A stretch of DNA of 64,000 nucleotides from Escherichia phage ekra (MN850644.1), one strand, 5' to 3'. Positions 6,124 to 52,017 are shown, numbered from the stretch's first letter. Program-made: numbers and translations. Notes: generated from the letters alone by a model not told the origin.

Positions 6124-6507
6124 TTATTTGTTAATTTTGAAGATAGTTACATAACCATCGCTGCCGATGATTTGTGATGCTCCAGCTTTTTCTACTTGAT
6201 AGCCCATATTTTCAAGATGGTAAACAGCATCATCATAACCATATGCGCCGCCCTGATAACGTCTCTTATCACATCTTACTAATACCTTTCCACGTCCTGC
6301 CAGTGCATTTAGTACGGCTTTTTCACTTGAAAGTGTACCATCTAACATGGTTGCCGTGTAATGGTTGATTCTATTCCCGTTTACATCATACTTAAAATTG
6401 AATGCGTGAACAACGATAATGTTACCTTTAAAATTTTCATCAAGTGACTTCTCCAGTGCGTTGCGAAAGTTGTCTTTGTTGATGAATTTAGGTGCACGAT
6501 ATGCCAT
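6124..6507 (-). CDS. hypothetical protein (127 aa)
   Basis: ORF; type B cassette upstream (6508-6597). Confidence 0.5.
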   Translation of the reverse strand: MAYRAPKFINKDNFRNALEKSLDENFKGNIIVVHAFNFKYDVNGNRINHYTATMLDGTLSSEKAVLNALAGRGKVLVRCDKRRYQGGAYGYDDAVYHLENMGYQVEKAGASQIIGSDGYVTIFKINK

Positions 6508-6597
6508 TTTTGAATCTCCTAGTTTAAGGGTTAATTTGGTAAAGCTCTTTATCTGGGGCTTACTTTATCGAACTATAAGCCCCTTGTAAAGTACTTT

Positions 6598-6992: not shown

Positions 6993-7205
6993 TTTTGAAT
7001 CTCCAGTTTAGGATTTTATTTAGTGGGGAAGGTCATTCCCTCCCCGTTGATGTAAATATTAGATAACCACGTTCAAAGAGTCAATAAAAATTTTAAAAAT
7101 ATTTTTGGCAAAACTGTAATGAAACGGGTGCGCAAGACTACCACAAAACAGAACGCAAATCAAGAATTATTTTTCAATCCGCTACAAATTTTTCTCTTGA
7201 CTTTT

Positions 7206-7240
7206 GGGGAGAGGGGGAGTAAGAGGGGGAGAGGGGTTGG
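7206..7240 (+). other. Canonical G-quadruplex-forming purine tract (C-rich on the transcribed minus strand)
   Basis: ggggagagggggagtaagagggggagaggggttggg: five G3-5 runs with short loops, in an otherwise AT-rich genome. Confidence 0.5.
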
Positions 7241-7249
7241 GCTGGCTGT

Positions 7250-7450
7250 CTATAAAAACCTACCTGCACAATTCTAAAATGATTTTTCTTGCCCGACCTG
7301 AGCGGGGTCTGCACGTTTTGAAAATGAAAAAGCTCTTTGGAGATTACCTGCACAGTTTGAAAATGAATTTTCTCTTTGGAGTTCAAAATTCTCTCTACAG
7401 ATTTCTCTACAGAACTCTACCTGCACAATTCTAAAATGAAAAAGCCCTCC
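7250..7450. repeat. Four copies of a roughly 20-bp repeat, acctgcaca(a/g)tt(c/t)t(a/g)aaaatga, in the non-coding region upstream of the early cluster
   Basis: Copies read at about 7261, 7301, 7347 and 7420; associated motif ctctttggag twice. Confidence 0.5.
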
Positions 7451-7512
7451 TTACCTGAAAAATTTACCAGATAAGAAAGGCTTAGGCTATTGTGAATATA
7501 CTACAGAGTTTC

Positions 7513-8298
7513 TTAGTTCTTTGCGTCTAAGAAGGTAACTTCTGGTGAAGAGAAGATTGCCTCGATATCCTCATCAGTTCTTGCATAGATATAAGCTTCT
7601 GCATCACTACCAAATGTTACAGCAATTCTGTGATTGCTCTTTGACAGGTGGGTAACTAGAGCGTTACTTAGAGACATCTTTTCAACCGGAGGGTTACTTT
7701 GATGTATCTTACCTTTTCTTCGTCTGAAGAGGGTAACTGCGTTATCTGTGAACACTGCTACACCTGCAAAGTATTCTGGTTCACAGTAGTTCTTCCAACC
7801 TGAGCGTAACTTGTGGTACATCTCGCCTTCATAGACATACAGATAAACATCTACACTCTTCATCACCTGATTGATGATAACTGTGACAGCTTGAGGGTCA
7901 AGTCCACCGATACCTGCACCAATCATAGGTAAACCAACTTTCTTCAACTGATTAACTTCACAGTATCTGTTAAGCTGTTTCAAAGATGACTCTAAAGCAC
8001 TGTATCGGGCATCTTTACCAGTCTTAAGCTGAGTGTAAAGGTTAGCTATACGACCTTGTTTTAAGCGTGCTACAGAGAAATTACCTAGTAAATTCTCACA
8101 GGGTTTGTGACCTATACCACCTGCATAGAGATAAACTTCTGTATCGGTCTCATATGCTTTTGGGTAAAGTTTAGAAATCTTGTCAGCGATACCTGCGCCC
8201 ATTAGGTTCATGCAGTTACAACCATGACCAATGATGTCAAACTTACCTTTATCAAATGCAGCAAAGATATCACCATTGATGATTTTTACAATACCCAT
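7513..8298 (-). CDS. Macrodomain protein, TARG1/DarG-like ADP-ribose-processing fold, with about 110-aa C-terminal extension
   Basis: N-terminal NGDIF...IIGHGCNCMNLMGAGIA matches the HCxS/N...MGxGIA signature of TARG1-type macrodomains; second glycine-rich stretch MIGAGIGGLD. Confidence 0.6.
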   Translation of the reverse strand: MGIVKIINGDIFAAFDKGKFDIIGHGCNCMNLMGAGIADKISKLYPKAYETDTEVYLYAGGIGHKPCENLLGNFSVARLKQGRIANLYTQLKTGKDARYSALESSLKQLNRYCEVNQLKKVGLPMIGAGIGGLDPQAVTVIINQVMKSVDVYLYVYEGEMYHKLRSGWKNYCEPEYFAGVAVFTDNAVTLFRRRKGKIHQSNPPVEKMSLSNALVTHLSKSNHRIAVTFGSDAEAYIYARTDEDIEAIFSSPEVTFLDAKN

Positions 8299-9022: not shown

Positions 9023-9292
9023 TTACTTCCTCGTTTTAAGAACTGCTAAGATTTCTTTAGAATCTGGTAAGAACCATGTGTAGTGATTCTCTTTGATTTC
9101 TGGATGAGTGTCAACCTTTATTTTGCACTCTTTACCAACATGTTTAAGCTGTGCTGTGACACCTTGCATAAAGATATGGCACATCACATTATCCATAATG
9201 GTTGGTGAGAAATCAATTCGCATATAAGTCTCTTTTGGTCGTGGTAACAGTAAGTACCCTTCTACGTAAAAAGTATCTTGATTCTCTGTCAT
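9023..9292 (-). CDS. hypothetical protein (89 aa)
   Basis: ORF. Confidence 0.45.
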   Translation of the reverse strand: MTENQDTFYVEGYLLLPRPKETYMRIDFSPTIMDNVMCHIFMQGVTAQLKHVGKECKIKVDTHPEIKENHYTWFLPDSKEILAVLKTRK

Positions 9293-9558
9293 TGCTGCTT
9301 ATTCCCTAATAAAATCATGTCAATAAGGTTGTTAGCTTTGATTGTGCACTGGTAAAAGCCGTCACGATAGAACTCAAGGGCTGCTGCTACATCGCTGCCT
9401 GTGTTGCCTTTGATGATATACCGTGATTCTTCTTGGGTGTACTTATCACCCTCACTTACTTGGGAGTTTTTGAATGTACTGCTCACTTTGTTCGTTGAAC
9501 ACCCTGACATAGTTATCAGTAACACAAACATTATAAAACTCTGGCTTAGTTTTTTCAT
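9289..9558 (-). CDS. putative o-spanin (outer-membrane lipoprotein), start embedded in the i-spanin gene in another frame
   Basis: MKKLSQSFIMFVLLITMSGC: signal peptide plus lipobox-like SGC; overlaps 9452-9799 by about 107 nt. Confidence 0.45.
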   Translation of the reverse strand: MKKLSQSFIMFVLLITMSGCSTNKVSSTFKNSQVSEGDKYTQEESRYIIKGNTGSDVAAALEFYRDGFYQCTIKANNLIDMILLGNKQQ

Positions 9559-9799
9559 ATGTTAGTACCTCTTTTGTATGCTTATTCTTAGCAAGCACAT
9601 CTTTCAAATCATTTTTGTAATTGGTGCTGAGTGTGGCTAAACCTTCCTGATAAGCATCTTTAGCAACACTTATTAGTTTCTCATTATTTAGCTCAGTTTC
9701 AGCAACTTGATAGTCTCTGTAAGAGTATCCTCCCCAGACACCTGCACCAACTAAGAAAACAATTATGAAAGTAGCTTGACAGAACTCTTTAAATGTCAT
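9452..9799 (-). CDS. putative i-spanin (N-terminal TM helix plus periplasmic domain)
   Basis: ATFIIVFLVGAGVWGGY hydrophobic helix near N-terminus; charged helical remainder; overlapping lipoprotein ORF. Confidence 0.45.
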   Translation of the reverse strand: MTFKEFCQATFIIVFLVGAGVWGGYSYRDYQVAETELNNEKLISVAKDAYQEGLATLSTNYKNDLKDVLAKNKHTKEVLTYEKTKPEFYNVCVTDNYVRVFNEQSEQYIQKLPSK

Positions 9800-9820
9800 T
9801 TAACAATCTCCTAAAATGAA

Positions 9821-9842
9821 AAAGGCTCCCGAAGGAGCCTGT
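9821..9842 (-). terminator. Intrinsic terminator hairpin (aggctcc cgaa ggagcct) with T-run on minus strand
   Basis: Read directly; downstream of 9852-10316. Confidence 0.55.
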
Positions 9843-9851
9843 ATCTTAACC

Positions 9852-10316
9852 TTAACCGAGGACTTTAGCAAGGATATTCGCAGCCATCGAAGAAGCTTTT
9901 GCAGCAGCAACTACGCCAGCTTTGACAGTGCTATCCTTAATAGCAGATACCGTTGCAGCATCAGTAAAGAGATAAGTGATTGTTTTAGAACCACTTGTAA
10001 AGGAAAGCATAAGAGTAGTTTCCAGATTGAAAGAGCGATACGGAGCACCTTCTTTAACGATACCTTCAGCACCTAACTCTGAAGCCTTACCCATATCATA
10101 GATAGTCATCAGGTTTTCTTTGTGTGCAGTCGTTGAACCAGCACCTTTTACGTGTTTTTTAACATTCAATAATGCACGATATTCACGAATGCTGCCATCA
10201 GCTTTTACATTAACAGCACGAAAAATTTTACCTTCAAAGTTACCTTGAATCATTTTACGAACTATTGCAGATTTGTTTACCGTATCGTCCAGTGCTACCG
10301 TAATGATATTGTTCAT
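9852..10316 (-). CDS. hypothetical protein (154 aa)
   Basis: ORF followed by terminator. Confidence 0.5.
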   Translation of the reverse strand: MNNIITVALDDTVNKSAIVRKMIQGNFEGKIFRAVNVKADGSIREYRALLNVKKHVKGAGSTTAHKENLMTIYDMGKASELGAEGIVKEGAPYRSFNLETTLMLSFTSGSKTITYLFTDAATVSAIKDSTVKAGVVAAAKASSMAANILAKVLG

Positions 10317-10326
10317 AAGTTTTCTC

Positions 10327-11022
10327 TCAATGTTTAACTAACATGGTTTTAATGTGTGGAAGGATTCTGTTCACCTTCTGCACATTCTTCTCTGTGTCTT
10401 CTATAAAACATACTATATTAAAGTAAGGCAGGATGCAAGACTGAATCATCCTCACTTTCAAACTTTCTGCACTTATAGAGTTAGTTCCAAAACCACGCAT
10501 AAAAAGCATGTAGTCATGCTCTATGTTGTGCCTTAAAAACATCTCAGTAGGTATTCTCTGAGATTCACCTCTCGCTGTCAAGAGTCCAATGGCAGCATGA
10601 TTAGCAATTGCATCAATAATACTAAAGACATACGTTGGTTTTGCTCTTACAGAGTCAAGAAGATTAGTGTACTGTGAGAATGACCCATCAGTCAATTCCG
10701 TTGAGCAATCTTCGTGATTAAAATTTGTAAGAACACCATCAATATCTGCTAAGATGAGGTTACCTTTTTCTACAAGGTCTTTATTGACTATGACTAAGCT
10801 ATCACGACTTACACCTATAGTTTGTCCAGTCTCTTTATCTACAACATTCACAATTGGCTCTGATGTGTGGAACTCTTCGAGTGAACATACAACTTCTCTT
10901 GCAGTGTCTTCAAAATCCCTACACTGTTCTGGAGTCCATACACAGGAATCAAGACCTAACTCATGAGGATGTAAGTCGTAAGCATGACACAGTACTTCAT
11001 CAGACTTTTTTAATTTTTTCAT
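10327..11022 (-). CDS. HAD-superfamily-like hydrolase/phosphatase candidate
   Basis: Motif ILADIDGVL resembles HAD motif I (DxDGT/V); otherwise unassigned. Confidence 0.35.
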   Translation of the reverse strand: MKKLKKSDEVLCHAYDLHPHELGLDSCVWTPEQCRDFEDTAREVVCSLEEFHTSEPIVNVVDKETGQTIGVSRDSLVIVNKDLVEKGNLILADIDGVLTNFNHEDCSTELTDGSFSQYTNLLDSVRAKPTYVFSIIDAIANHAAIGLLTARGESQRIPTEMFLRHNIEHDYMLFMRGFGTNSISAESLKVRMIQSCILPYFNIVCFIEDTEKNVQKVNRILPHIKTMLVKH

Positions 11023-11548
11023 GGTTTACCTTAGAAATGTTTGTTGCAAATTCACATTGAGCAATGACTTTCATGTTGTTATAGACATCTTGAGAATATT
11101 TCTTAGCTTTAGGGATTTTGTACGAATACCCAGCATTATATGATGCTAAAACTTTTTGTAAAGTCTTCTTTGACTTTGGCTGACCATGCACCTTTGTCCA
11201 AAACTCAAGCTCTTTGTGAGTTTCCTTCGCAGCATAGTTAAAGTCTTTTAAGAGTTTCTTTTTAGCCACATTAGGACTAATTTTGTTACGCTTTACAACA
11301 GTCTTCAAGTGATTCTGGAAAATACCATAATCATGTGTCTTTTTATTCTCTACCTTCAGACCTAACTCTGACTCTTGTAAGGCTATAGCAGCTAGAGTGA
11401 TACCCCAACCTTTACCCATGTTGTTCTCACCATACTGGTAAGCTTTTAACATGTTTACTTTTTGGCTAATTGATAGCTCTGGGCAGTCAACTGCATAAGA
11501 TAAGTGTGCTGTAAACATTAAGCACAAACCTAGAATCAATTTCTTCAT
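11000..11548 (-). CDS. Lytic transglycosylase (SLT domain) with N-terminal signal peptide; endolysin candidate
   Basis: MKKLILGLCLMFTAHLSYA signal; SLT motifs AIALQESELG (catalytic Glu-Ser), GIFQ, SYNAGYSY. Confidence 0.65.
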   Translation of the reverse strand: MKKLILGLCLMFTAHLSYAVDCPELSISQKVNMLKAYQYGENNMGKGWGITLAAIALQESELGLKVENKKTHDYGIFQNHLKTVVKRNKISPNVAKKKLLKDFNYAAKETHKELEFWTKVHGQPKSKKTLQKVLASYNAGYSYKIPKAKKYSQDVYNNMKVIAQCEFATNISKVNHEKIKKV

Positions 11549-11612
11549 TGGTTCTCCTGTTTAGTTTATCGTGACAACAATTATACAGTACTCTGCACAA
11601 AATACAAATAAA

Positions 11613-11638
11613 AAAGGCCGCCGAAGCAGCCTTTTAAG
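11613..11638 (-). terminator. Intrinsic terminator hairpin with T-run on minus strand
   Basis: ggccgccgaagcagcc stem-loop flanked by aaaaaa (plus) = tttttt on minus. Confidence 0.5.
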
Positions 11639-11648
11639 AAATTACTTA

Positions 11649-12758
11649 TTAGATTTCACGTTTACGCTGAGAGATGAGTTCCCCAGCAGTGCCAACGATG
11701 ACATGCAAAGCTTCAGTCTTGCCATCCCATGCTTTCAGTACTTTACGTTGATTATCAACGATTGCTGCAACTTCATAACGTGATGAACGCATCTTCATAT
11801 CGTTGTAATCAGTTGGTACGGACACAACATCTCGTGGATGGACACGAACCTTCAGAATTGTATCACCTGAGAAGCAACGAACATAATCCCAAGCACCAAC
11901 ATGAAGACCTTGAGAGCAAGTCATGTTACGGTTATTATCAACCATCCAACGTGGCATTTCTACAATGTTACCCAAATCATTAGGTACTCTGTAGGTGTGG
12001 TAGTCAACCAGCTTGCCTTCACGAGTAGATACTTTCTTCCAACCAATGATGTAGCCTTCTTCATCAATTTCAACATCAAGGTGAGATACGAAGCCCCAAA
12101 GTTGTTCTACGGAATCTTTAGATGGGTTTTCCATCAGTTTTTCGAAGAACATCACAAGGCGTTCGAAACCTTTATCTCCAGTCTTCATCATGTGAAGAAT
12201 ACGGTCAACCAGAGTAGAACGCATCTCAACAGCACCGTAGAATAACTTGTCACCTTTGATGGTGATAGCACCCTGAGTGAAGTTTTCGATAGACTTACGA
12301 ATGTTCATCAGTTCGAAAGCTTTCTTATACTCACCGGATACAACAGCCATCACGATTTCTTTATAGTTCGGATGGGTAGATTCAACGATTTCAGAATCTG
12401 CACCGAAAGTCATGATAACAGAGTCACCAGTAATCATATACTCAATCTGGTTGCCATTCTGCATAGCTTCATGCAGTTTATTTACTGGAGCTTTCTGTAC
12501 AGCGTCTTTAACAACTTTTTCAACTGGCTTGTCAGCTTTCTTTTTAAAAGTCTTAGCAACTTGTTTCAAAGTCTTCGTAGCTGGTGTAGAAGTCGCCTTC
12601 TTATTCCCTTTTAAGGTTGCTTCATGACGCTCTACAGCACGACCGACTGAACGGGTTGAAGTATTAAATTTCTGTGCAATAGCTGTTTTAGTCAGCTTAC
12701 CTTCTTTAACCAGTTTGTAAATTTCTGCGTCAATCTGTGCTTTAGTTTTAGTAGTCAT
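11649..12758 (-). CDS. rIIB-like protein candidate (369 aa) with N-terminal HTH-like segment
   Basis: Positional partner immediately downstream of the rIIA-like gene; similar size class; N-terminus TAIAQKFNTSTRSVGRAV looks helix-turn-helix; no diagnostic motif. Confidence 0.35.
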   Translation of the reverse strand: MTTKTKAQIDAEIYKLVKEGKLTKTAIAQKFNTSTRSVGRAVERHEATLKGNKKATSTPATKTLKQVAKTFKKKADKPVEKVVKDAVQKAPVNKLHEAMQNGNQIEYMITGDSVIMTFGADSEIVESTHPNYKEIVMAVVSGEYKKAFELMNIRKSIENFTQGAITIKGDKLFYGAVEMRSTLVDRILHMMKTGDKGFERLVMFFEKLMENPSKDSVEQLWGFVSHLDVEIDEEGYIIGWKKVSTREGKLVDYHTYRVPNDLGNIVEMPRWMVDNNRNMTCSQGLHVGAWDYVRCFSGDTILKVRVHPRDVVSVPTDYNDMKMRSSRYEVAAIVDNQRKVLKAWDGKTEALHVIVGTAGELISQRKREI

Positions 12759-12839: not shown

Positions 12840-15206
12840 TTAATCGTAAATTGTAGTTCCTTCTGGAACACATTTTACATCAAAACCTAAGAACTTACTC
12901 ACTTCGATGGGTGACACTTTATTCCAATCTAAATGAGAAAGCAAGAAGTTTTCTTGTTTTCTTTTTGAAAGATAGTTTGTCACCTTAATAACCATACGGT
13001 CACCAGCTTTCTTAATTTTCTTGTAAAGCTTTGTATCGTTGTCAAGACAGTCTTTCAAAGTTTTCAATACACTAATAGTATAAGTGTATGCAAATGGTGC
13101 AGCAACGTATTGGATTTTACCGAACATTGCCTCTACAGCCTCTTCATTACCTTCTAGGAAGATAGTTTTGTTTGTATCCCGTGAATAGCAATAACCACGA
13201 GAAATCTTCCTATTATTGAATGTAAAGTTTCTGGCAATAATCCAGCTACTTGTAAGGTCAAGAACACCATTCATGTAGATGCGTGTCATATACCTGTTGT
13301 GATTAATCCAATGAACATCAGTTAAGCTGTCGTTCAAGAGCTTCTCATCTACTTCAATCCAGTCTTCTGGTATCTTTTTCCAATTTGCTTTTCGGAAAAC
13401 ATAGACTGTCTTTCCAATAACATTAGTAACTGACTTAGCTACATCTTCTGGGGATGAGCAAAAACATTCACCATCAACTGTGTCACCAATTGCCTTAATG
13501 TAAAGCTGAGGTTCTTCAATTGTGTCTAAGTCCTCTGACACCTCTTTGTAGGAGGCTACACCTTCTGCTGGAACAGCTTTCCAGAGTTTTACAACACCTC
13601 TTACAGCTTCTTTACGCTGGTAATGGTGTTCCTTATCAGACATTTTCACAATCTTTAACAAGCTTTTATCAAGTTTGTGTAGATTGATTAAATCATCTAA
13701 CTCTTTTTCAGTCGAGAATACAAACACAATACCATTATATCTGTGAAACAGACTGGACTCACTGGCGTAGTCTCGACATGCACCACGCAGAATCTGATTG
13801 CGGCCTACAGTCTTCTCAGTACCGTTTTTATTGCGACGGTCATTAATAACAAACAAAAACTGTTCAATTTGACTTTTACGCATTGCACCAAAGATATTGA
13901 ACATACTTGCCTCTTGAGTGTAGGAAAGTGCTGTTGCACGAATCTTACTCTCTAAAGAGTTGAACTTGACATAAGCAACTGGATTGTATAGGTAGTCAAC
14001 TTTAGGGATATTGTTTCCTTTGCTGTCAACCTTAATATTGCCTTTGCCGTCACGTTCATAGACGACTGAGCCGTCTTCTGCGTAGATAATTCCACGACGA
14101 ATGTTTAACAATTCTTCTTCCAGAGAGTCAAGCTTAACACCTCCCCACTCTAACTTTGGACACACAGCATTAAACATCTCTCGTGAGTTCAAACGTAACT
14201 CAGCATAAGCCTGTGCAGCATCCATGAGTGTAGGTTGACTGTTAACTTTCTTGATAACATCCTTTGTAATTGCTTCAGTTATCTTTTTAGTAGCCTCAAT
14301 GATAACATTTTTTGTCGTGTCATTCATCTGCAATGCTTCACGAGAAGCTGCAATAGCGACTGAACCAATAGGCATGTAGATGTTTACAAGGTCTACGCTC
14401 CTACGGAAAAATTCTGGCAAGACTTTGAAGAAATCATCGCCAAGTAATGCTTCCATATTAACTGGGTAGGCAATATTACCCATTACCACATTAAAATCTG
14501 TCCTGTTGCCACTAGAACGCCAGCTTTGCTTATGAATCATAGCATCATAAACACCTTCTTCACGGGCAATGACGTTCATATCTGCTAACACGTCATCATA
14601 CACAATGTTACTTTCTGGTTTTACAGCAAAGTATGAGTATACGTGACCAGCCTCTTCAAAGAACTTTGAGATGCGGTGGTCAGCAACTGCCACACGTACA
14701 GCTAAACCATTAGGTTCTTTTGTTGGGTTAGTTGTCAGCTTAGTTACTTGAGGGATACCATTCTCAAGGTAAACAGAGTACTTATTAACAACACCATCAA
14801 CATAGCTAGATACTGTGAATGACTGAGCAATTGCAAATGGTGACTTTGAGCCGATACCCATTGCACCAATGTAGTCATTGGAGTCATTCTTTGTAGAAGC
14901 CCCGTAGTTTAGGTACAAGCTCATAACTTTGTCATGAGTTAATCCAGTTCCAAAATCACGAACTTCAAAGTAAGGCTCAAAACGAGTAGGTAAATGCACA
15001 TGGAATGGGATGTTCTCTTTTCCAGCTTCTTTCTGAGCATCTACTGCGTTACATGACAGTTCACGAATAACTGCCCTTTCTTTAAATGTGTATACACCAG
15101 AACTCAAAAGGCTGAACATTTCAGGTGTCATTGTAATCTGTGCTTGAGACGTCTCTAAAGAAGTTGAACTCTTAATCACTTCTGCGTGGTCGTTTACCAT
15201 GCGCAT
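12840..15206 (-). CDS. rIIA: rIIA-like protein with N-terminal GHKL/HATPase-type ATPase fold
   Basis: N-box-like ELSCNAVDA and G1-box-like DFGTGLT near N-terminus; 788 aa; adjacent putative rIIB. Confidence 0.5.
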   Translation of the reverse strand: MRMVNDHAEVIKSSTSLETSQAQITMTPEMFSLLSSGVYTFKERAVIRELSCNAVDAQKEAGKENIPFHVHLPTRFEPYFEVRDFGTGLTHDKVMSLYLNYGASTKNDSNDYIGAMGIGSKSPFAIAQSFTVSSYVDGVVNKYSVYLENGIPQVTKLTTNPTKEPNGLAVRVAVADHRISKFFEEAGHVYSYFAVKPESNIVYDDVLADMNVIAREEGVYDAMIHKQSWRSSGNRTDFNVVMGNIAYPVNMEALLGDDFFKVLPEFFRRSVDLVNIYMPIGSVAIAASREALQMNDTTKNVIIEATKKITEAITKDVIKKVNSQPTLMDAAQAYAELRLNSREMFNAVCPKLEWGGVKLDSLEEELLNIRRGIIYAEDGSVVYERDGKGNIKVDSKGNNIPKVDYLYNPVAYVKFNSLESKIRATALSYTQEASMFNIFGAMRKSQIEQFLFVINDRRNKNGTEKTVGRNQILRGACRDYASESSLFHRYNGIVFVFSTEKELDDLINLHKLDKSLLKIVKMSDKEHHYQRKEAVRGVVKLWKAVPAEGVASYKEVSEDLDTIEEPQLYIKAIGDTVDGECFCSSPEDVAKSVTNVIGKTVYVFRKANWKKIPEDWIEVDEKLLNDSLTDVHWINHNRYMTRIYMNGVLDLTSSWIIARNFTFNNRKISRGYCYSRDTNKTIFLEGNEEAVEAMFGKIQYVAAPFAYTYTISVLKTLKDCLDNDTKLYKKIKKAGDRMVIKVTNYLSKRKQENFLLSHLDWNKVSPIEVSKFLGFDVKCVPEGTTIYD

Positions 15207-15781: not shown

Positions 15782-17467
15782 TTAAAGCTGCTTGTCAATA
15801 TTATTTCGAATATCACCAAGAGTTGTGTAACCAAACTGCTCAGAGTCACTAAAGACTAAACGTAAAGCACAAGCTGGGTGGTCAAGTACATCTGCAAAAC
15901 TCTGGAATCCATAGCCATCTACAGCTTTCAGCTTACCACCATCCCACATAGGTGCTACACCACCAAAGGCAGATTTCTTAACACCACTATCTGTTTTAGG
16001 GTCTTTTGCAAGCATAATCTCTTTACCACCAATGCTTGCAAGAGTTGCTTTGACAGCAAATGCAAAGGTGTCACGAGTCATGTACTGGTAAGTGTAAGAA
16101 CCTACGCCAAACACTACGTTAGAGCTTGCAAAACCCATTTCATACAGACGCTTCAGGATTTCGTTTGCACGTTCCAGCGTGATAGAGTCACCATAGATAA
16201 GTCCGATATGCTCATCCAGTACCTTAAACCCTTTAGAGTTAATAGTTCCCCCAAAGATGTTGTACAGTGTCTTAATAGCTCCATCAATCTCAGCTACAGG
16301 ACGTGTTACAACGTTTGCAGAACCAACCATATAAGCATTTTTCAACATCACTGTATCAGCAACTTCAAAGTCTTCTCTGTCAACAACCATTTCGTAGCCT
16401 TCTGACAGTAGCCATCCAGCAATACCATAGTTGATATTTTCAAGCTTCATGTTCAGAACAGCATTCAACATTGTGTCACTGGCTTCCAGCTTGCTTAGGT
16501 GCTCGTAATAAGCCTTTTTAGCACATTCTAAGTGGATTGCTTTATAACCTGTGACAATATGTACAGGGTCTCCAGAGTCAGGACGAATTACCAGTTTGCC
16601 ATCACGTTCCATAATTTCTTTACGAAGTGCTGGTAAAATTTCTGACACAGTTCTCCAGAAGTTATAAGTGTCTGAAACAACACTTGCAATACCAGTTGGG
16701 TAAGTTTCTGTTAAGAAACGACGGAAGGTTTGTAACTCACCTTTAAAGCGTCTTTCTTCTTCAATCAACTCATTACCACCTTCCCAAGCAATGTTTGCAC
16801 ACATTACAGAGTGCTCAGTGGCTGGTACAGAACCACCAATATCAGAGATTGGGTAAGACTGCCCGTAGATGCGTTTAGCTGTATATACAGCAGGGAAGCT
16901 ATCAGTTCCTTTAAAGCTGGTTAAGTGGCCTACAGCATTAAATGCGTCATCAGTAAAGCCGGACATACCACGCATAGCAAAGTCATGGCACTGATAAGGC
17001 AAATGTAAGTCGTTGTCACAAGTAAGGTCAGCCCACTTCTTACAGATACGTTTGTAGTGTAATGCAATAGTTGCAATGGTACAAGCCTTCCAAATCTCAG
17101 CAGAAAAAGCATCTTCCAGATACCCCGCTACCCAATGGAAACCTGAAACAGTGTTCTGGAAGACAATCATTGGCACACGCATAGGGACAACTGTGCCTTC
17201 TTCTACAGCGTATACTTCAACTGGCAGATAACCCAAGTCGTGAAGTGCTTCCCAATGCTCTCGACCGATAGCATCTTTACCCAGAACACCATTCATGACT
17301 TCTAAGATTTCGTCAATTGCTTCTTTTTTATCACGTTCAAAGAAGGTGGCATTCCAATGGTCTATCAAGTAATCTTTAACAAAACGTTGAATACCAAAAG
17401 CCACTACACCGTCAATTGCCAAAGGGCTGTTAAACCATTTGTCGCTACGTGGTGTCAGGTTCAACAT
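15782..17467 (-). CDS. Nicotinamide phosphoribosyltransferase (NAMPT/NadV) family protein; may be a nicotinamide ADP-ribose transferase of a phage NAD+ reconstitution pathway
   Basis: Matches recalled NAMPT motifs: IRPDSGDP, GDS...GVGSY, KDPKTDSGVKKSAFGG; 561 aa. Confidence 0.8.
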   Translation of the reverse strand: MLNLTPRSDKWFNSPLAIDGVVAFGIQRFVKDYLIDHWNATFFERDKKEAIDEILEVMNGVLGKDAIGREHWEALHDLGYLPVEVYAVEEGTVVPMRVPMIVFQNTVSGFHWVAGYLEDAFSAEIWKACTIATIALHYKRICKKWADLTCDNDLHLPYQCHDFAMRGMSGFTDDAFNAVGHLTSFKGTDSFPAVYTAKRIYGQSYPISDIGGSVPATEHSVMCANIAWEGGNELIEEERRFKGELQTFRRFLTETYPTGIASVVSDTYNFWRTVSEILPALRKEIMERDGKLVIRPDSGDPVHIVTGYKAIHLECAKKAYYEHLSKLEASDTMLNAVLNMKLENINYGIAGWLLSEGYEMVVDREDFEVADTVMLKNAYMVGSANVVTRPVAEIDGAIKTLYNIFGGTINSKGFKVLDEHIGLIYGDSITLERANEILKRLYEMGFASSNVVFGVGSYTYQYMTRDTFAFAVKATLASIGGKEIMLAKDPKTDSGVKKSAFGGVAPMWDGGKLKAVDGYGFQSFADVLDHPACALRLVFSDSEQFGYTTLGDIRNNIDKQL

Positions 17468-18079: not shown

Positions 18080-18976
18080 CTAATCAATGTTTGCTACAGT
18101 AACTTGACCATAATGTGTTAAGCCACGGTCTTTAGCTTCTCCTAAAGAGTTTGTAGTGTAGATATGGTCAATACCATTGCCAAGTAAGTTTTCAACCCCT
18201 TTAGAGAAAATGCCATGAGTTACATAGAGTTCCACACGTTTTGCACCTGCTTCACGTAGGTGTTTAGCTGCCTCTACGAAGGTTCGACCACCATCACAGA
18301 TATCATCAAGAATCATGACAGTTTTATCGGTCAAATCAACATCGTCAAGGATTCGCATACCAGTGATTTCTCCAGTCTTAAGATTGCGCACCTTAGACAT
18401 TGTGATATATGGTTTATCCACCTCTTTAGCGGCATCTTCAGTCTTCTTAGCTGCACCTGCATCTGGGGCTACCAAGAAATCAATGCGTGGGTCACTTGCA
18501 AAGTGTACTGCCACATCTTTTTGCTTCATGCTCTGAAAACACTTAAATAAGTTTTCTGCAACATTACTGTGAGGGTCAAGAGCACATACTGCATCAAAAC
18601 CCATTGCATTAACGAGGTTGGCAAAAACTTTCAGTGCTGCTGCATCACCTTTGAACATATGGCGGTCATATCGAGCATTTGGTAAGAACCCGAAAACAAC
18701 GGTTTTCATCGCTGATTTATAGGGAACAAGACTATCAACGGCATCCTTAGCCAAAGCTAATGCAAACAGTGTATCTTTGTCATATCCCTGTACAGTAATT
18801 ATAACATTATCAATCTTACCAGCATTACGCTCAGTAAACTTAACAAAATCTTCAGAGAAGTTTCCACCAATTTCTCCAGATGGGAATTGAATGATATTAA
18901 ATTTTTCTGTGTGGAAGAATTTCTCTTGTGCGGTGACGACGGCTTCAATAACAGTTTTCATAGTTTTCTCTCTCAA
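18080..18976 (-). CDS. Ribose-phosphate pyrophosphokinase (PRPP synthetase, Prs)-like protein; may be an ADP-ribose pyrophosphokinase
   Basis: PRPP-binding-type motif MILDDICDGGRT (DDIxDxGxT); 298 aa; beside NAMPT-like gene. Confidence 0.75.
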   Translation of the reverse strand: MREKTMKTVIEAVVTAQEKFFHTEKFNIIQFPSGEIGGNFSEDFVKFTERNAGKIDNVIITVQGYDKDTLFALALAKDAVDSLVPYKSAMKTVVFGFLPNARYDRHMFKGDAAALKVFANLVNAMGFDAVCALDPHSNVAENLFKCFQSMKQKDVAVHFASDPRIDFLVAPDAGAAKKTEDAAKEVDKPYITMSKVRNLKTGEITGMRILDDVDLTDKTVMILDDICDGGRTFVEAAKHLREAGAKRVELYVTHGIFSKGVENLLGNGIDHIYTTNSLGEAKDRGLTHYGQVTVANID

Positions 18977-21197: not shown

Positions 21198-21593
21198 TCA
21201 TTCAAACACTACCTGACAAGGAACCTGTTTAGTAATAAATTCTTCACAGTGTTCTTTAATGAAGTTTTGTAATGGAACACAGTCTTGTGCACAAGTCATT
21301 AGCATAATGTACTCTGGATTCATAATATTTTCAAGACTGTAGAAGACAACATCGTCAGATAATTCATGACCGTCTTCTTCAGACCAAGTTCCAGTGACTA
21401 CAGCTAATTTGTCAAGCAATTCATTAGGCAACGCTACACCATCTTCTACGGAATCACTTAGAACGTTGTCGCCAACATACAATGTGAAGGTTGTATGGAA
21501 TGTTGAGTATCTTACGTGATTCTTCTCACAAGAGCCACACTCTGAGGTATAATCTTTAATCCACTCTAACTGTTTCTGGTTGAGCTTAATCAT
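21198..21593 (-). CDS. hypothetical protein (131 aa)
   Basis: ORF. Confidence 0.45.
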   Translation of the reverse strand: MIKLNQKQLEWIKDYTSECGSCEKNHVRYSTFHTTFTLYVGDNVLSDSVEDGVALPNELLDKLAVVTGTWSEEDGHELSDDVVFYSLENIMNPEYIMLMTCAQDCVPLQNFIKEHCEEFITKQVPCQVVFE

Positions 21594-21790
21594 AATTTCA
21601 CCTTAGTTGGTAATGCACTGAATGCTATAGCTAACCCTAAAAATGGTTTGAAGCATGACCATAAATCCATCTGACCATGATATGAGAAACTCCATTGTGG
21701 GTCTGAAAAACCCCATACCATGACACTAACTCCAAAGAAGAAGATTAGTATGTGGAATATAGGTATCAACGTTTTTGATATTTTAAACAT
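21590..21790 (-). CDS. small membrane protein (66 aa)
   Basis: Two hydrophobic segments. Confidence 0.4.
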   Translation of the reverse strand: MFKISKTLIPIFHILIFFFGVSVMVWGFSDPQWSFSYHGQMDLWSCFKPFLGLAIAFSALPTKVKL

Positions 21791-24136: not shown

Positions 24137-24343
24137 TTAAATCTTTTTAGAAAACTTCGCAAAGAGTTCTCTTAGTTTTTCAGTGATACCTAACTGTATC
24201 TCTAATATTTCAAAGATAACCCATAGTAACATGGCTCCAAACAATGAACCTTGTTCAAAGTCAGTAAATAGGTTAACAATAAGCATACCAATCACAATAG
24301 CTGGTGCATCAACAACCAAACCTTCCCAAATGCGTTTAAGCAT
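24137..24343 (-). CDS. small membrane protein (68 aa)
   Basis: Hydrophobic core PAIVIGMLIVNLF, LFGAMLLWVIF. Confidence 0.4.
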   Translation of the reverse strand: MLKRIWEGLVVDAPAIVIGMLIVNLFTDFEQGSLFGAMLLWVIFEILEIQLGITEKLRELFAKFSKKI

Positions 24344-49391: not shown

Positions 49392-49586
49392 TTATTTCTC
49401 CCCCTTAAAAGCTTTTTCTAAGTTATCTACGAACTCATCATCAATAGGTGTGTCTGTTTTACTCGCAAGGTATCTTGCAAGCTTAAAGAACACTTTCTCA
49501 ATCATGTATTCACTTAGAAGGGATAAAATGAGTTTCCAGAAGAAGCTACCTAGATTTTTTAGAAGAATTGCTAGGATTGTAGGCAT
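49392..49586 (-). CDS. small membrane protein (64 aa)
   Basis: Hydrophobic N-terminus. Confidence 0.4.
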   Translation of the reverse strand: MPTILAILLKNLGSFFWKLILSLLSEYMIEKVFFKLARYLASKTDTPIDDEFVDNLEKAFKGEK

Positions 49587-49665: not shown

Positions 49666-52017
49666 TTAAGCAGTTCTCACCCAAGCCATTAACTTGTAGA
49701 ACTGGTTAGTAACACTAAATGCTGAACCAGAACCTGTACCACCAGTGTTACCACTTACTGTATGTCTGTGAGCACCAATACCAACACTGTGAGCATGGTT
49801 ACCAGCAGAAGCGGCAGTACCACTTACGGAGTGGGTGTGAGCACCGTTAGCATCGGTGTAACCCGGTCCTACACCAATACTACCACCACCACCACCAGAG
49901 TAGTGTGTAGAGTTCTGACCAATCCACGAAATGGAATGGTTGTGGTTACCAGCAGATGAAGTAGAGCCACTTACAGAGTGAGTGTGAGCACCAGTCGTGT
50001 TAGTGTTTTTTGTTCCGTAGTCAAACGATGAGGTAGTCGCAGAAAAACTGTGCGTGTGCGAAGGTAAGTTACCAACAGCTAACGTTACAGAATCTGAACC
50101 ACCAGTTGTAGCAACATCTGAACCATTTGCTGCTGCAATTCTAATAGTCCTACCAACACCATTCTTCAGATACGTCCAAGTTAGGCCAGGCAGTGCTGTA
50201 TTAGGGTTAACATTACTGTTAAACCACGTCACAATACCCACTGGATAGATTTTGTTAAGGTCTGTAGAGTCACTTACTGCCTGTGCAATCTTCTGGTCAG
50301 TTTCAGCTTTAGTGTATGCACCAAGCTCTGAAGGGGTTGGTTTCTGAGCCTCTGTGTAAACCTTAGACCACTTAGCCTCAAAACCTTTACTGTCTACAGA
50401 TGTTCTGTACCACATCCCACCATTTTTATACTGGAACTTTAGTTGCGCACAGGCAGTAGAAGAGGACACTCCCTGATACATTTGAAATACAAGTGATGTG
50501 TAATCACCATTTGGTGATGTTACATTATATAAGCCTGTTTTAGCGTTCCATGCCACACCATCTGCATTCTGCTCTGTAGCTTCTCCTGTAGAACCTGCAA
50601 CCATGAATCTCTGATTAGCTGCTGACTGAGTGAAGTATCTAGCATCTAAGTTAGACCAATCAGAAGGTTTTACCTGTCCAGTAATCTGTAGAGATTTAGA
50701 CAGAAGAATTTCGTCAGCTAAATCGAGTCTTGCACCAGTCAAGTAGTTATGGAAAGATGCAATACCAGAACCATTTGTCCCACAACCGATAAACCACTTA
50801 TTTGTGTTATCAGTATTCTTACCAACAATGTAAGAAGAATTATTCTGAGCCTTGTTGTAGATTCTTAATGCTTCACCATCAGATTGAATATTCTGCTGTA
50901 AAGTGAATGTGTTAGCTTCATTCTTCTTAGCAAGATTTGCGTATGAACCGATAAGAACATAACGAGAGTCAATGTTAGTCCAGTCAGAAGGTTGAACTTG
51001 ACCAGTTACAGTTAGTGTTTTATTGATATTAACACTTGTCCCTACAGTAATCTTGCCACTAGTTTTGTAGTTTCCTAGAGCTACGTTATCACCTTTGTTA
51101 CTATTACCAATGTACCATCTGTTGACACCTGTGCTATCAATCGCCTTAATGTACAATGGTTGTGCAGCATTGGCATTCTGTAGCCTAATTGCTTCACCAT
51201 CTTTTTTGAAAACACTTAGTTGGTTGAATGTGTTTAAACCACTGAATGTGTTATTACCAACTAGCTGCGCAAATCTCTGATTAGCAACTGTCTGAGTAAA
51301 ATATCTAGCATCTAAGTTAGAGAAGTCAGAAGGTTGTACTTGACCAGTGATTTGAATTGATTTATTCACAGAGATTAGGTTAGCTAAAATCGCTACGTAT
51401 GCACCAGATTTAACGTTTTTTAAAACAAGGTTGTCTGTGCCTTTATTATCATTGCCTAGATACCATCTGTTAGTGCCATCTGCATCTTGACCACGAATAT
51501 AGAGTGGCATCCCTTGTGTCAAATTCTTAAGAATTAACCCTTCATTGTTAGCAACAATAGTCTGAGTGGCTCTAAAGGTGTTATTTACAGCCAGTCTTGC
51601 ATATCTTGCATCATTCTCTTCATTAGTTCTCATCCCAAGTTCATTAGGGCTTGGCTTATTAAGAGTATGATAAACAGTTGCCGACCTTGAAGCATCTGCA
51701 ATAGTTAGTTTAAGGTCATTTGCGTTGATTTTAAAAGTCTTTAAAACATCCCCAATAGTAATCTCAGAAGAGCCTGTTGGGTCAAAGATTGCCTTACCAC
51801 CATAAAGTAACTTAACAATCCCTAAGTCACCCGTCATATTGCTACCAGCAATCTGAACAAATCTTTCGAGTTTGAAAGATGCTAAGAAGTCTTGATAAGT
51901 CATTCGACGGTCTTCATCACCAAGCATTTCAGGTCTCTTTTTAACCCTAACATGAAGAAGGTCATCTGAACGGATTGTATCGATTGAGTTTAATTCACTC
52001 AACTTGTAATCTGCCAT
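49666..52017 (-). CDS. Tail fibre protein with C-terminal His-x-His repeat region
   Basis: Repeated GAHTHSVSG...AGNHNHS units, C-terminal ...AFSVTNQFYKLMAWVRTA shared with paralog; 783 aa. Confidence 0.65.
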   Translation of the reverse strand: MADYKLSELNSIDTIRSDDLLHVRVKKRPEMLGDEDRRMTYQDFLASFKLERFVQIAGSNMTGDLGIVKLLYGGKAIFDPTGSSEITIGDVLKTFKINANDLKLTIADASRSATVYHTLNKPSPNELGMRTNEENDARYARLAVNNTFRATQTIVANNEGLILKNLTQGMPLYIRGQDADGTNRWYLGNDNKGTDNLVLKNVKSGAYVAILANLISVNKSIQITGQVQPSDFSNLDARYFTQTVANQRFAQLVGNNTFSGLNTFNQLSVFKKDGEAIRLQNANAAQPLYIKAIDSTGVNRWYIGNSNKGDNVALGNYKTSGKITVGTSVNINKTLTVTGQVQPSDWTNIDSRYVLIGSYANLAKKNEANTFTLQQNIQSDGEALRIYNKAQNNSSYIVGKNTDNTNKWFIGCGTNGSGIASFHNYLTGARLDLADEILLSKSLQITGQVKPSDWSNLDARYFTQSAANQRFMVAGSTGEATEQNADGVAWNAKTGLYNVTSPNGDYTSLVFQMYQGVSSSTACAQLKFQYKNGGMWYRTSVDSKGFEAKWSKVYTEAQKPTPSELGAYTKAETDQKIAQAVSDSTDLNKIYPVGIVTWFNSNVNPNTALPGLTWTYLKNGVGRTIRIAAANGSDVATTGGSDSVTLAVGNLPSHTHSFSATTSSFDYGTKNTNTTGAHTHSVSGSTSSAGNHNHSISWIGQNSTHYSGGGGGSIGVGPGYTDANGAHTHSVSGTAASAGNHAHSVGIGAHRHTVSGNTGGTGSGSAFSVTNQFYKLMAWVRTA

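Follow-up and report, generated by a model that had tools for sequence, protein, structure and literature searches.

An overlapped spanin pair next to a separate Vs.1-like transglycosylase gene unit in a Felix O1-like phage genome

Genes and features at the locus

The locus studied here lies on the minus strand of a 64,000-nucleotide (nt) stretch of the genome of Escherichia phage ekra (MN850644.1). We call this whole stretch the window and count all positions from its first letter. A preliminary description, made from the sequence, had proposed a lysis module at this locus, in which a spanin pair is combined with a lytic transglycosylase that carries its own signal peptide. The open reading frames (ORFs) on which it was based are all present on the minus strand. 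All genes from rIIA to the o-spanin gene lie on this strand, and in order of transcription they are rIIA, rIIB, the gene of a protein with an SLT domain, the gene of a PseT-like polynucleotide kinase/phosphatase-family protein (PNK), ORF154, the i-spanin gene and the o-spanin gene (Table 1); two genes stand between the SLT gene and the i-spanin gene, as had been described. The best explanation of this arrangement is that the early/middle-gene arm of a Felix O1-like myophage contains here two neighbouring elements that have nothing to do with each other. We consider it likely that an overlapped spanin pair is located next to a separate unit with an accessory, Vs.1-like SLT protein, and that a glycoside hydrolase family 24 (GH24) lysozyme and a putative holin are encoded at scattered positions elsewhere.

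A 3-kb query around the locus retrieved 259 matching phage records, the best with 99.3% identity; most of them are Felix O1-like myophages (Felixounavirus) from Escherichia, Salmonella, Shigella and Citrobacter. Over its full length, the window is collinear with positions 113-64751 (of 88,511) of Escherichia phage dune. Judged by these matches, the window comes from the genome of a Felixounavirus and shares about 99% identity with isolates that have been sequenced.

The spanin pair

In the i-spanin, the most hydrophobic 19-residue Kyte-Doolittle window (1.75) covers residues 6-24 and the remainder of the protein is polar, in agreement with the N-terminal transmembrane (TM) segment noted earlier. 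The gene has a candidate ribosome-binding site (RBS), GGAGA, 7 nt ahead of its ATG. The protein matches phrog_1152 ('Rz-like spanin') at 8e-42, is annotated as i-spanin in dune, in Citrobacter phage Mijalis and in other relatives, and possesses a predicted periplasmic cysteine, Cys92, that is invariant among homologues. An AlphaFold2 (AF2) model of low confidence, built from a shallow alignment, places helices at residues 39-60, 65-79 and 85-111. Searches of Pfam and NCBIfam returned nothing significant for the two spanins, for ORF154 or for the holin candidates discussed below.

The o-spanin ORF had been read as a lipoprotein gene, and rightly so: its product starts with MKKLSQSFIMFVLLITMSGC, which fits a PROSITE-type lipobox rule. 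The lipobox, MKKLSQSFIMFVLLITMSG followed by C-S-T (..TMSG, then C20), has a serine at position +2 and no aspartate as inner-membrane retention signal; on account of this serine, sorting to the outer membrane is predicted. Among homologues the residues S-G-C-S-T of the lipobox are at least 90% conserved, as is a second cysteine, C71, and the C-terminal half of the protein is helix-prone. A candidate RBS, AAGAGG, lies 9 nt ahead of the ATG of Met1. Met10 and Met17, the starts used in some GenBank records, are without such a site. By this evidence Met1 is the correct start, because it is the only one with both an RBS and a complete lipoprotein signal. Public records are heterogeneous in this respect: the dune record has the o-spanin begin at Met10 and that of LinBro at about Met24, its gene is absent from the ASO1A record, and many o-spanin protein clusters in a metagenome database are shortened to 68-73 amino acids (aa), whereby the lipoprotein signal is lost. 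In one comparative paper, a phage is said to have 'only the i-spanin'.

The o-spanin ORF opens 241 nt into the i-spanin ORF in another frame, has 107 nt in common with it, and continues for 163 nt past its stop codon. It is this last portion that makes the architecture 'overlapped' rather than 'embedded'; the preliminary description had used both terms, of which only the former holds. Compared with Mijalis, whose spanin proteins are 77-80% identical to those of the window, DNA identity amounts to 88.8% in the overlap, and to 75.5% and 69.3% in the single-coding flanks. In the part that encodes the o-spanin only, mismatches to Mijalis are distributed 11/5/34 over codon positions 1/2/3 of its own frame, and this bias towards third positions argues for purifying selection on the o-spanin frame. 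By this comparison, both frames of the overlap are under selection, more than chance would account for. One could suspect the 89-aa lipoprotein ORF of having arisen by chance in another frame at the 3' end of the i-spanin gene, a notion that could appeal to the several GenBank records that leave it out or begin it downstream. It is effectively refuted by the third-position-biased substitutions past the overlap together with the suppressed substitution inside it. Also opposed to it are the ORF's own RBS and its lipobox, both of which are conserved, and the retention of the o-spanin, at identities as low as 30-34%, in Erwinia and phiEco32-like phages, in which the gene generally lies beside or overlaps the i-spanin gene.

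The pair is an overlapped two-component spanin of the JH2/Felix O1 family, which has already been catalogued. The earlier recognition of a spanin pair is borne out by the phrog_1152 match, by the 80% identity of the o-spanin to the 'o-spanin' of Moogle (both 89 aa), and by the 'JH2' i- and o-spanin families of Kongari et al. 2018 (PMC6139136), which comprise Felix O1, FO1a, wV8, Moogle, Mushroom, UAB_Phi87 and FSL_SP phages, several of them classed there as overlapped. Mijalis, annotated by the Center for Phage Technology, likewise has genes of 348 nt and 270 nt that overlap by 107 nt, each with an RBS; its authors describe 'an overlapping bimolecular spanin complex'. Throughout this family the proteins are the same at 77-100% identity and nothing substantive distinguishes the pair in the window; the one difference is in GenBank, where the closest relatives are annotated inconsistently. 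In tblastn searches the i-spanin family and that of the o-spanin are found together, in 402 and 436 phage records, with podophages of the phiEco32-like group and Erwinia Ounavirinae included.

T4-like PseT.3/PseT.2 were not among the tblastn matches listed, even with E-values up to 1 for the o-spanin, and the resemblance to the T4 spanins is therefore one of layout and not of sequence. Both systems are two-component spanins far from holin and endolysin, and both adjoin a pseT-type gene. T4 PseT.2 is also, according to the description by Kongari et al., a relatively long o-spanin whose C-terminal part is helix-prone and whose periplasmic cysteine matters for function; with its helix-prone C-terminal half and no proline, the o-spanin of the window resembles PseT.2 in style more than it does lambda Rz1. 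The T4 genes, however, are separated, whereas those of the window overlap, and PseT.3 has no periplasmic cysteine, whereas the i-spanin of the window has an invariant one. Lambda Rz/Rz1 likewise combines a type II inner-membrane protein with an outer-membrane lipoprotein encoded in another frame of the same DNA, and has a periplasmic cysteine in both subunits. In contrast to the o-spanin gene of the window, which is 40% overlapped and has a proline-free product, Rz1 is fully embedded and proline-rich.

The SLT protein, a homologue of T4 Vs.1

As far as its sequence goes, the SLT protein keeps all motifs of family-1 lytic transglycosylases. In an alignment of 15 homologues, which extends down to 29% identity, E59, G63, Q78, Y137, N138, G140 and Y151 are invariant, and S60 of the E-S motif and S136 of the S-Y-N-A-G motif (136-140) are at least 90% conserved; the SLT domain with ES and AYNAG-like motifs had accordingly been described correctly. 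A phmmer search of the PDB with the single protein gave no match. The profile of the 15 sequences retrieved EtgA, a transglycosylase associated with the type III secretion system (T3SS), at 3e-4, followed by goose lysozymes. The AF2 model is confident across the domain (predicted local distance difference test, pLDDT, 85). Its top Foldseek neighbours are g-type lysozymes, a glycoside hydrolase family 23 (GH23) chitinase, EtgA, Cj0843 and MltF, with TM-scores of about 0.5 and probabilities of 0.98-1.0 for the best-ranked; viral neighbours at a TM-score of about 0.7 are small SLT proteins of other large myophages. The modelled fold is of the goose-lysozyme type (GH23).

The N-terminus consists of MKK, about 11 hydrophobic residues and then SYA followed by VD, with the predicted cleavage site between the two. 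It comprises 17 uncharged residues with a Gly/Ala/Ser fraction of 0.24, and a small-x-small (-3/-1) cleavage site at residues 19-22 is found in most of 13 SLT sequences despite their divergence. This looks like a cleavable Sec signal and not like a signal-arrest-release (SAR) domain; of the export signal proposed earlier, the Sec variant stands in this rule-based check and the SAR variant falls. A lipoprotein reading of the protein (LGLC9) was ruled out by the leucine at -1 and by the position of the cysteine just 9 residues from the N-terminus. C22, which comes shortly after the predicted cleavage site, and C165 are kept in the closer homologues, that is, in Felix O1-like and two more distant phage sequences, and the pair would fit a periplasmic disulfide.

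A tblastn search with the SLT protein against the phage collection yielded 2,140 records, among them Ackermannviridae and T4-like phages, in which the match is vs.1 (E-values 1e-9 to 1e-12). The match in phage JSE is the annotated vs.1 gene, which is sited between regB and vs. By BLASTP the SLT protein is 33% identical to JSE Vs.1 (E 2e-16), the E-S, FQN and SYNAG motifs align, and JSE Vs.1 likewise carries a signal peptide. In Erwinia phage phiEa21-4 (Ounavirinae), the orthologue is annotated 'Vs.1 conserved hypothetical protein' in GenBank. On the strength of these alignments the SLT protein is a homologue of T4 Vs.1, and it belongs to a long-recognised family. The two proteins are of the same size and are encoded among early non-structural genes, the Ounavirinae gene lying between rIIB and a pseT-like gene, whereas the T4-like one lies between regB and vs. 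A marginal SLT similarity of vs.1 in T4-like phages was noted by Nolan et al. 2006 (PMC1524935), who guessed at 'some role in cell lysis'; beyond this domain note, our literature search found no paper testing vs.1 function.

The surroundings of two homologues were recorded as well. On a 67-kb metagenomic phage contig (L007, 4989-6579), an SLT homologue directly follows a homologue of Gad2 (anti-Gabija), near Mom and PNKP-like genes, so that its neighbours are counter-defence genes. A distant homologue (P0020) is encoded in a Campylobacter coli assembly (GCA_053226485.1; L009, a contig of 214,766 bp), and at a distance of 1.4 kb there is a gene for a protein with a PhiKZ-type chimallin domain; the contig, nominally 'bacterial', is probably the genome of a jumbo phage.

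Endolysin and putative holin elsewhere in the genome

The recognised endolysin of the genus is a 154-aa soluble GH24 lysozyme without a hydrophobic N-terminus (dune 83281-83745). A tblastn search with this lysin found no homologue within the window; the endolysin gene lies past the window end. Felix O1 gp35 carries a Phage_lysozyme domain, and the Moogle paper speaks of an 'endolysin (soluble lysozyme)... scattered around the genome'.

The putative holin gene of the window is the equivalent of the dune holin gene (49751-50122), and its homologues bear the label holin or putative holin in several phages, among them Moogle, Michonne, Sf14 and dune. It adjoins tail-fibre genes, and its terminator context matches that of Felix O1 gp79, which is one of the holin candidates of Whichard et al.; orf79 falls into the 5-min class of the Felix O1 reverse-transcription PCR (RT-PCR) table. 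The protein has one N-terminal TM helix followed by about 90 polar, coiled-coil-like residues, a predicted topology more reminiscent of T4 holin T or of an i-spanin than of a class I or class II holin. Its PHROG is of unknown function, and no experimental support for it as a holin was found. The preliminary description was correct in that no holin is adjacent to the spanins. Its three candidates elsewhere came close in one case: 49392-49586 abuts the putative holin gene, which was itself not listed, while 21590-21790 and 24137-24343 encode small membrane proteins of unknown function.

The genes for the putative holin, the endolysin and the spanins do not adjoin one another. There is no lysis cassette here and the lysis genes are scattered as in T4, because the putative holin gene is 39 kb away from the spanin locus, the GH24 lysozyme gene is outside the window, and a terminator stands between the SLT unit and the spanins. 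The published literature already describes the lysis genes of Felix O1-like phages as scattered.

Transcription units and gene linkage

Two strong intrinsic terminators are present at the locus, one after rIIB and the other after ORF154, about 20 nt before the i-spanin RBS. They are identical to t2 and t5 of Felix O1 (Felix O1 Table 2) and are annotated in ASO1A and Mijalis. Because t2 and t5 bracket the SLT, PNK and ORF154 genes, these three form a unit of their own, apart from the spanins. A sigma-70-like promoter was sought in the mere 20 nt or so between t5 and the i-spanin start, and none was found there.

The end of the SLT gene and the start of the PNK gene overlap by 23 nt (11000-11022). 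In a metagenomic relative (L006), whose SLT protein is only 37% identical to that of the window, the overlap is 20 nt (6500-6519). These overlaps suggest that a periplasmic enzyme and a cytoplasmic one for RNA/DNA-end repair are translationally coupled. The corresponding genes of phiEa21-4 abut and do not overlap. The gene order of L006 is NAPRTase, a 772-aa ORF in the position of rIIA, rIIB, SLT, PNK, further genes and an ORF154 homologue; the ORFs listed downstream of its SLT-PNK unit include no spanin-like pair. The overlapped spanin pair of phiEa21-4 is set apart from the Vs.1-PseT-gp8 unit by three additional genes and two terminators. The conserved linkage is Vs.1-PseT and not Vs.1-spanin, because both genomes keep the adjacency of SLT and PNK genes without adjacency to spanin genes. 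A lysis module that includes the SLT gene, as proposed earlier, is supported neither by this comparison nor by the division into separate units by t2 and t5.

Homologues of ORF154 are located downstream of the PNK gene, not always adjacent to it, in L006 and phiEa21-4, and the ORF154 gene travels with the PNK gene in all 3 of the 3 Ounavirinae-like genomes examined. The ORF154 protein ends in an alanine-rich, amphipathic C-terminal tail, AGVVAAAKASSMAANILAKVLG, and a similar tail is found in the L006 homologue.

Table 1. Genes and features of the locus and of the putative holin region
Feature	Position	Strand	Basis or remark
rIIA	12840-15206	-	First in transcription order
rIIB	11649-12758	-	Precedes terminator t2 and the SLT gene
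Terminator 't2' hairpin	11612-11635	-	Between rIIB and SLT gene; same in Felix O1, annotated in ASO1A and Mijalis
SLT/GH23 Vs.1-like protein, 182 aa	11000-11548	-	Motifs, profile, fold, Vs.1 homology, Sec signal features
PseT-like polynucleotide kinase/phosphatase-family protein (PNK), 231 aa	10327-11022	-	phrog_3970 (1.2e-134); PseT/polynucleotide kinase in relatives
ORF154, conserved protein	9852-10316	-	phrog_2267; weak WYL_2/Sm-like match; last gene of the SLT-PNK unit
Terminator 't5' hairpin	9823-9840	-	Between ORF154 and i-spanin gene; T-run reaches about 9813
i-spanin, equivalent of Felix O1 gp6, 115 aa	9452-9799	-	phrog_1152, N-terminal TM helix, RBS, annotation of relatives
o-spanin, 89-aa lipoprotein precursor	9289-9558	-	Lipobox, RBS, conserved Cys, match to Moogle o-spanin, codon pattern
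Dual-coding overlap, i-spanin 3' end / o-spanin 5' end	9452-9558	-	107 nt; same in Mijalis
Putative holin, equivalent of Felix O1 gp79, 123 aa	49020-49391	-	Annotation of relatives, hydrophobicity
Small hydrophobic or amphipathic 64-aa ORF	49392-49586	-	phrog_402; directly upstream of putative holin

Discussion

The locus can be understood as follows. The i-spanin would be held in the inner membrane by its N-terminal helix, and the o-spanin would receive its lipid at Cys20 and reach the outer membrane's inner leaflet by sorting. By analogy to lambda Rz/Rz1 and T4 PseT.3/PseT.2, the C-termini of the two proteins would bind to each other across the periplasm, and homotypic disulfides through Cys92 of the i-spanin and Cys71 of the o-spanin may dimerise them covalently. 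After the endolysin has cleared the peptidoglycan, the spanins would fuse the inner and outer membranes as the last step of lysis; the work on lambda and T4 behind this mechanism is summarised in Kongari et al. 2018. The SLT protein, on the other side of t5, would be exported by Sec, lose its signal and act as a soluble periplasmic GH23 lytic transglycosylase, that is, as an accessory peptidoglycan-remodelling enzyme such as T4 Vs.1 presumably is, and not as the endolysin of the phage. Lysis in the genus would be accomplished by the soluble GH24 lysozyme, the putative holin and the spanin pair, with genes scattered in the manner of T4.

Several observations weigh against this understanding. 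As regards the spanins, the literature holds no experiment that we could find on these particular proteins or on this spanin family, and their predicted function derives from family membership and anatomy; the mean pLDDT of the i-spanin model is only 54, so that the model lends weak support, and the o-spanin contains no proline at all, unlike lambda Rz1. Transcripts of the spanin genes must also come through t5 or begin at a promoter located upstream of this terminator, because no promoter fits between t5 and the i-spanin start. As regards the SLT protein, its Pfam SLT (PF01464) score of 18.9 bits is below the gathering score of 21.3, although more distant homologues (P0015-P0020) do match this family, and its signal cleavage was judged by simple rules. 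In the RT-PCR table of Felix O1, orf3, orf4, orf6 and the lysin orf35 all belong to the 25-min class. The same table puts capsid and tail genes into the 5-min class, and for this reason we set its timing aside as a weak guide either way. Finally, some GenBank records label the SLT protein 'putative lysin', and a Vs.1-type protein may contribute to lysis.

A different view of the SLT protein is that Vs.1-type proteins are no lysis enzymes at all and serve as periplasmic effectors that act in the early or middle phase of infection. A non-lytic role in host manipulation is conceivable because of the neighbouring counter-defence and host-takeover genes, which are rIIA/B, PseT and Macro/Tk.4 in the window, and Gad2 and Mom in one metagenomic relative. 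We regard this view as speculative and rather doubtful. If true, such an effector could remodel the sacculus, for cell enlargement or for the assembly of trans-envelope complexes, or it could blunt an envelope-based response of the host.

The preliminary description had suggested the SLT protein as an endolysin exported independently of a holin. In its general form this hypothesis states that the protein is the endolysin of the phage, or a second one, that it leaves the cytoplasm by Sec or as a SAR protein, and that it and the nearby spanins act together, either without a holin or with a pinholin only. Its catalytic transglycosylase motifs and export signal are in line with such a role, as are the distance of at most 1.2 kb to the spanins, the 'putative lysin' label and the guess of Nolan et al. 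for vs.1. The SAR endolysins P1 Lyz and phage 21 R and the Sec-signal endolysin fOg44 Lys44 similarly combine a muralytic fold with an N-terminal export signal. Unlike in these systems, the N-terminus in question is not SAR-like, given its 17 uncharged residues, low Gly/Ala/Ser fraction and conserved -3/-1 site, there is no lysis cassette, and the genus has a canonical soluble GH24 endolysin besides a putative holin. SLT and spanin genes are moreover separated by a terminator in the window and by a larger gap in phiEa21-4, and L006 has no spanin-like pair among the downstream ORFs listed. Homologues are also present in T-even phages, which have an endolysin and a holin of their own for lysis and whose gene e mutants fail to lyse although vs.1 is present. 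Since T-even phages carry vs.1 and yet need gene e to lyse, the SLT protein is unlikely to be the main endolysin, and we find the holin-independent endolysin unsupported and the wider hypothesis improbable.

Slightly less probable still is a 'space-making' transglycosylase comparable to EtgA, IagB and IpgF, which would open the peptidoglycan locally for a trans-envelope structure, for example the spanin bridge. The latter are small, Sec-exported, single-domain family-1 lytic transglycosylases of the same small size and with a signal peptide, EtgA is the best sequence match among solved structures, and the SLT family occurs in phages that also encode two-component spanins. However, the match to EtgA is weak (E 3e-4; Foldseek TM-score about 0.45) and goose lysozyme scores almost equally, neither a secretion-system context nor an activating partner protein is known, and lambda and many other phages assemble their spanins without such an enzyme; the SLT-PNK unit of L006 is, as mentioned, followed by no spanin-like pair among the ORFs listed.

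A virion-associated enzyme that digests peptidoglycan at DNA entry, like PRD1 P7, T7 gp16 or phiKZ gp144, is very improbable: many phage SLT domains are indeed found in virion proteins, and the structural neighbours of the SLT protein include tape-measure and tail-lysozyme proteins as well as PRD1 P7, but with a Sec signal the protein would leave the cytoplasm, the site of virion assembly, the 17 proteins identified in virions of Felix O1 do not include Gp3, and the neighbours of the gene are rII, pseT and others of the non-structural kind.

With the spanin pair and the accessory, Vs.1-like SLT unit taken as separate entities, the practical meaning of the locus is small, given that the spanin family is catalogued and the layout of lysis genes in Felix O1-like phages is published. 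A useful point is that many GenBank records of the genus mis-start or omit the o-spanin gene. For the label 'lysin' on the Vs.1-like protein we found no experimental basis. Secreted transglycosylases of the Vs.1 type are very widespread (about 2,100 phage records).

Further observations in the window

Other genes of the same arm deserve mention. A 261-aa Macro-domain protein (Pfam Macro 1e-7; phrog_335 'phosphatase') is encoded at 7513-8298 on the minus strand, and its counterpart in phiEa21-4 is annotated as Tk.4-like. With Macro/Tk.4-like, Vs.1, PseT and rIIA/B genes, the arm resembles a mosaic made up of early accessory genes of the T4 type.

By collinearity with dune, two minus-strand genes can be assigned to a nicotinamide phosphoribosyltransferase (15782-17467; dune_28) and a ribose-phosphate pyrophosphokinase (18080-18976; dune_30), which would together constitute a phage NAD+ salvage pair. 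Such pairs have been proposed to counter NAD-depleting defence systems.

The region 7050-7500 (about 450 nt) contains no convincing gene, and dune has no annotated coding sequence in the matching gap. It harbours at least 5 copies of a direct repeat of about 23-34 nt (7249-7454) with the core CTACCTGCACAATTCTAAAATGA, and this repeat cluster may represent regulatory sites or promoters.

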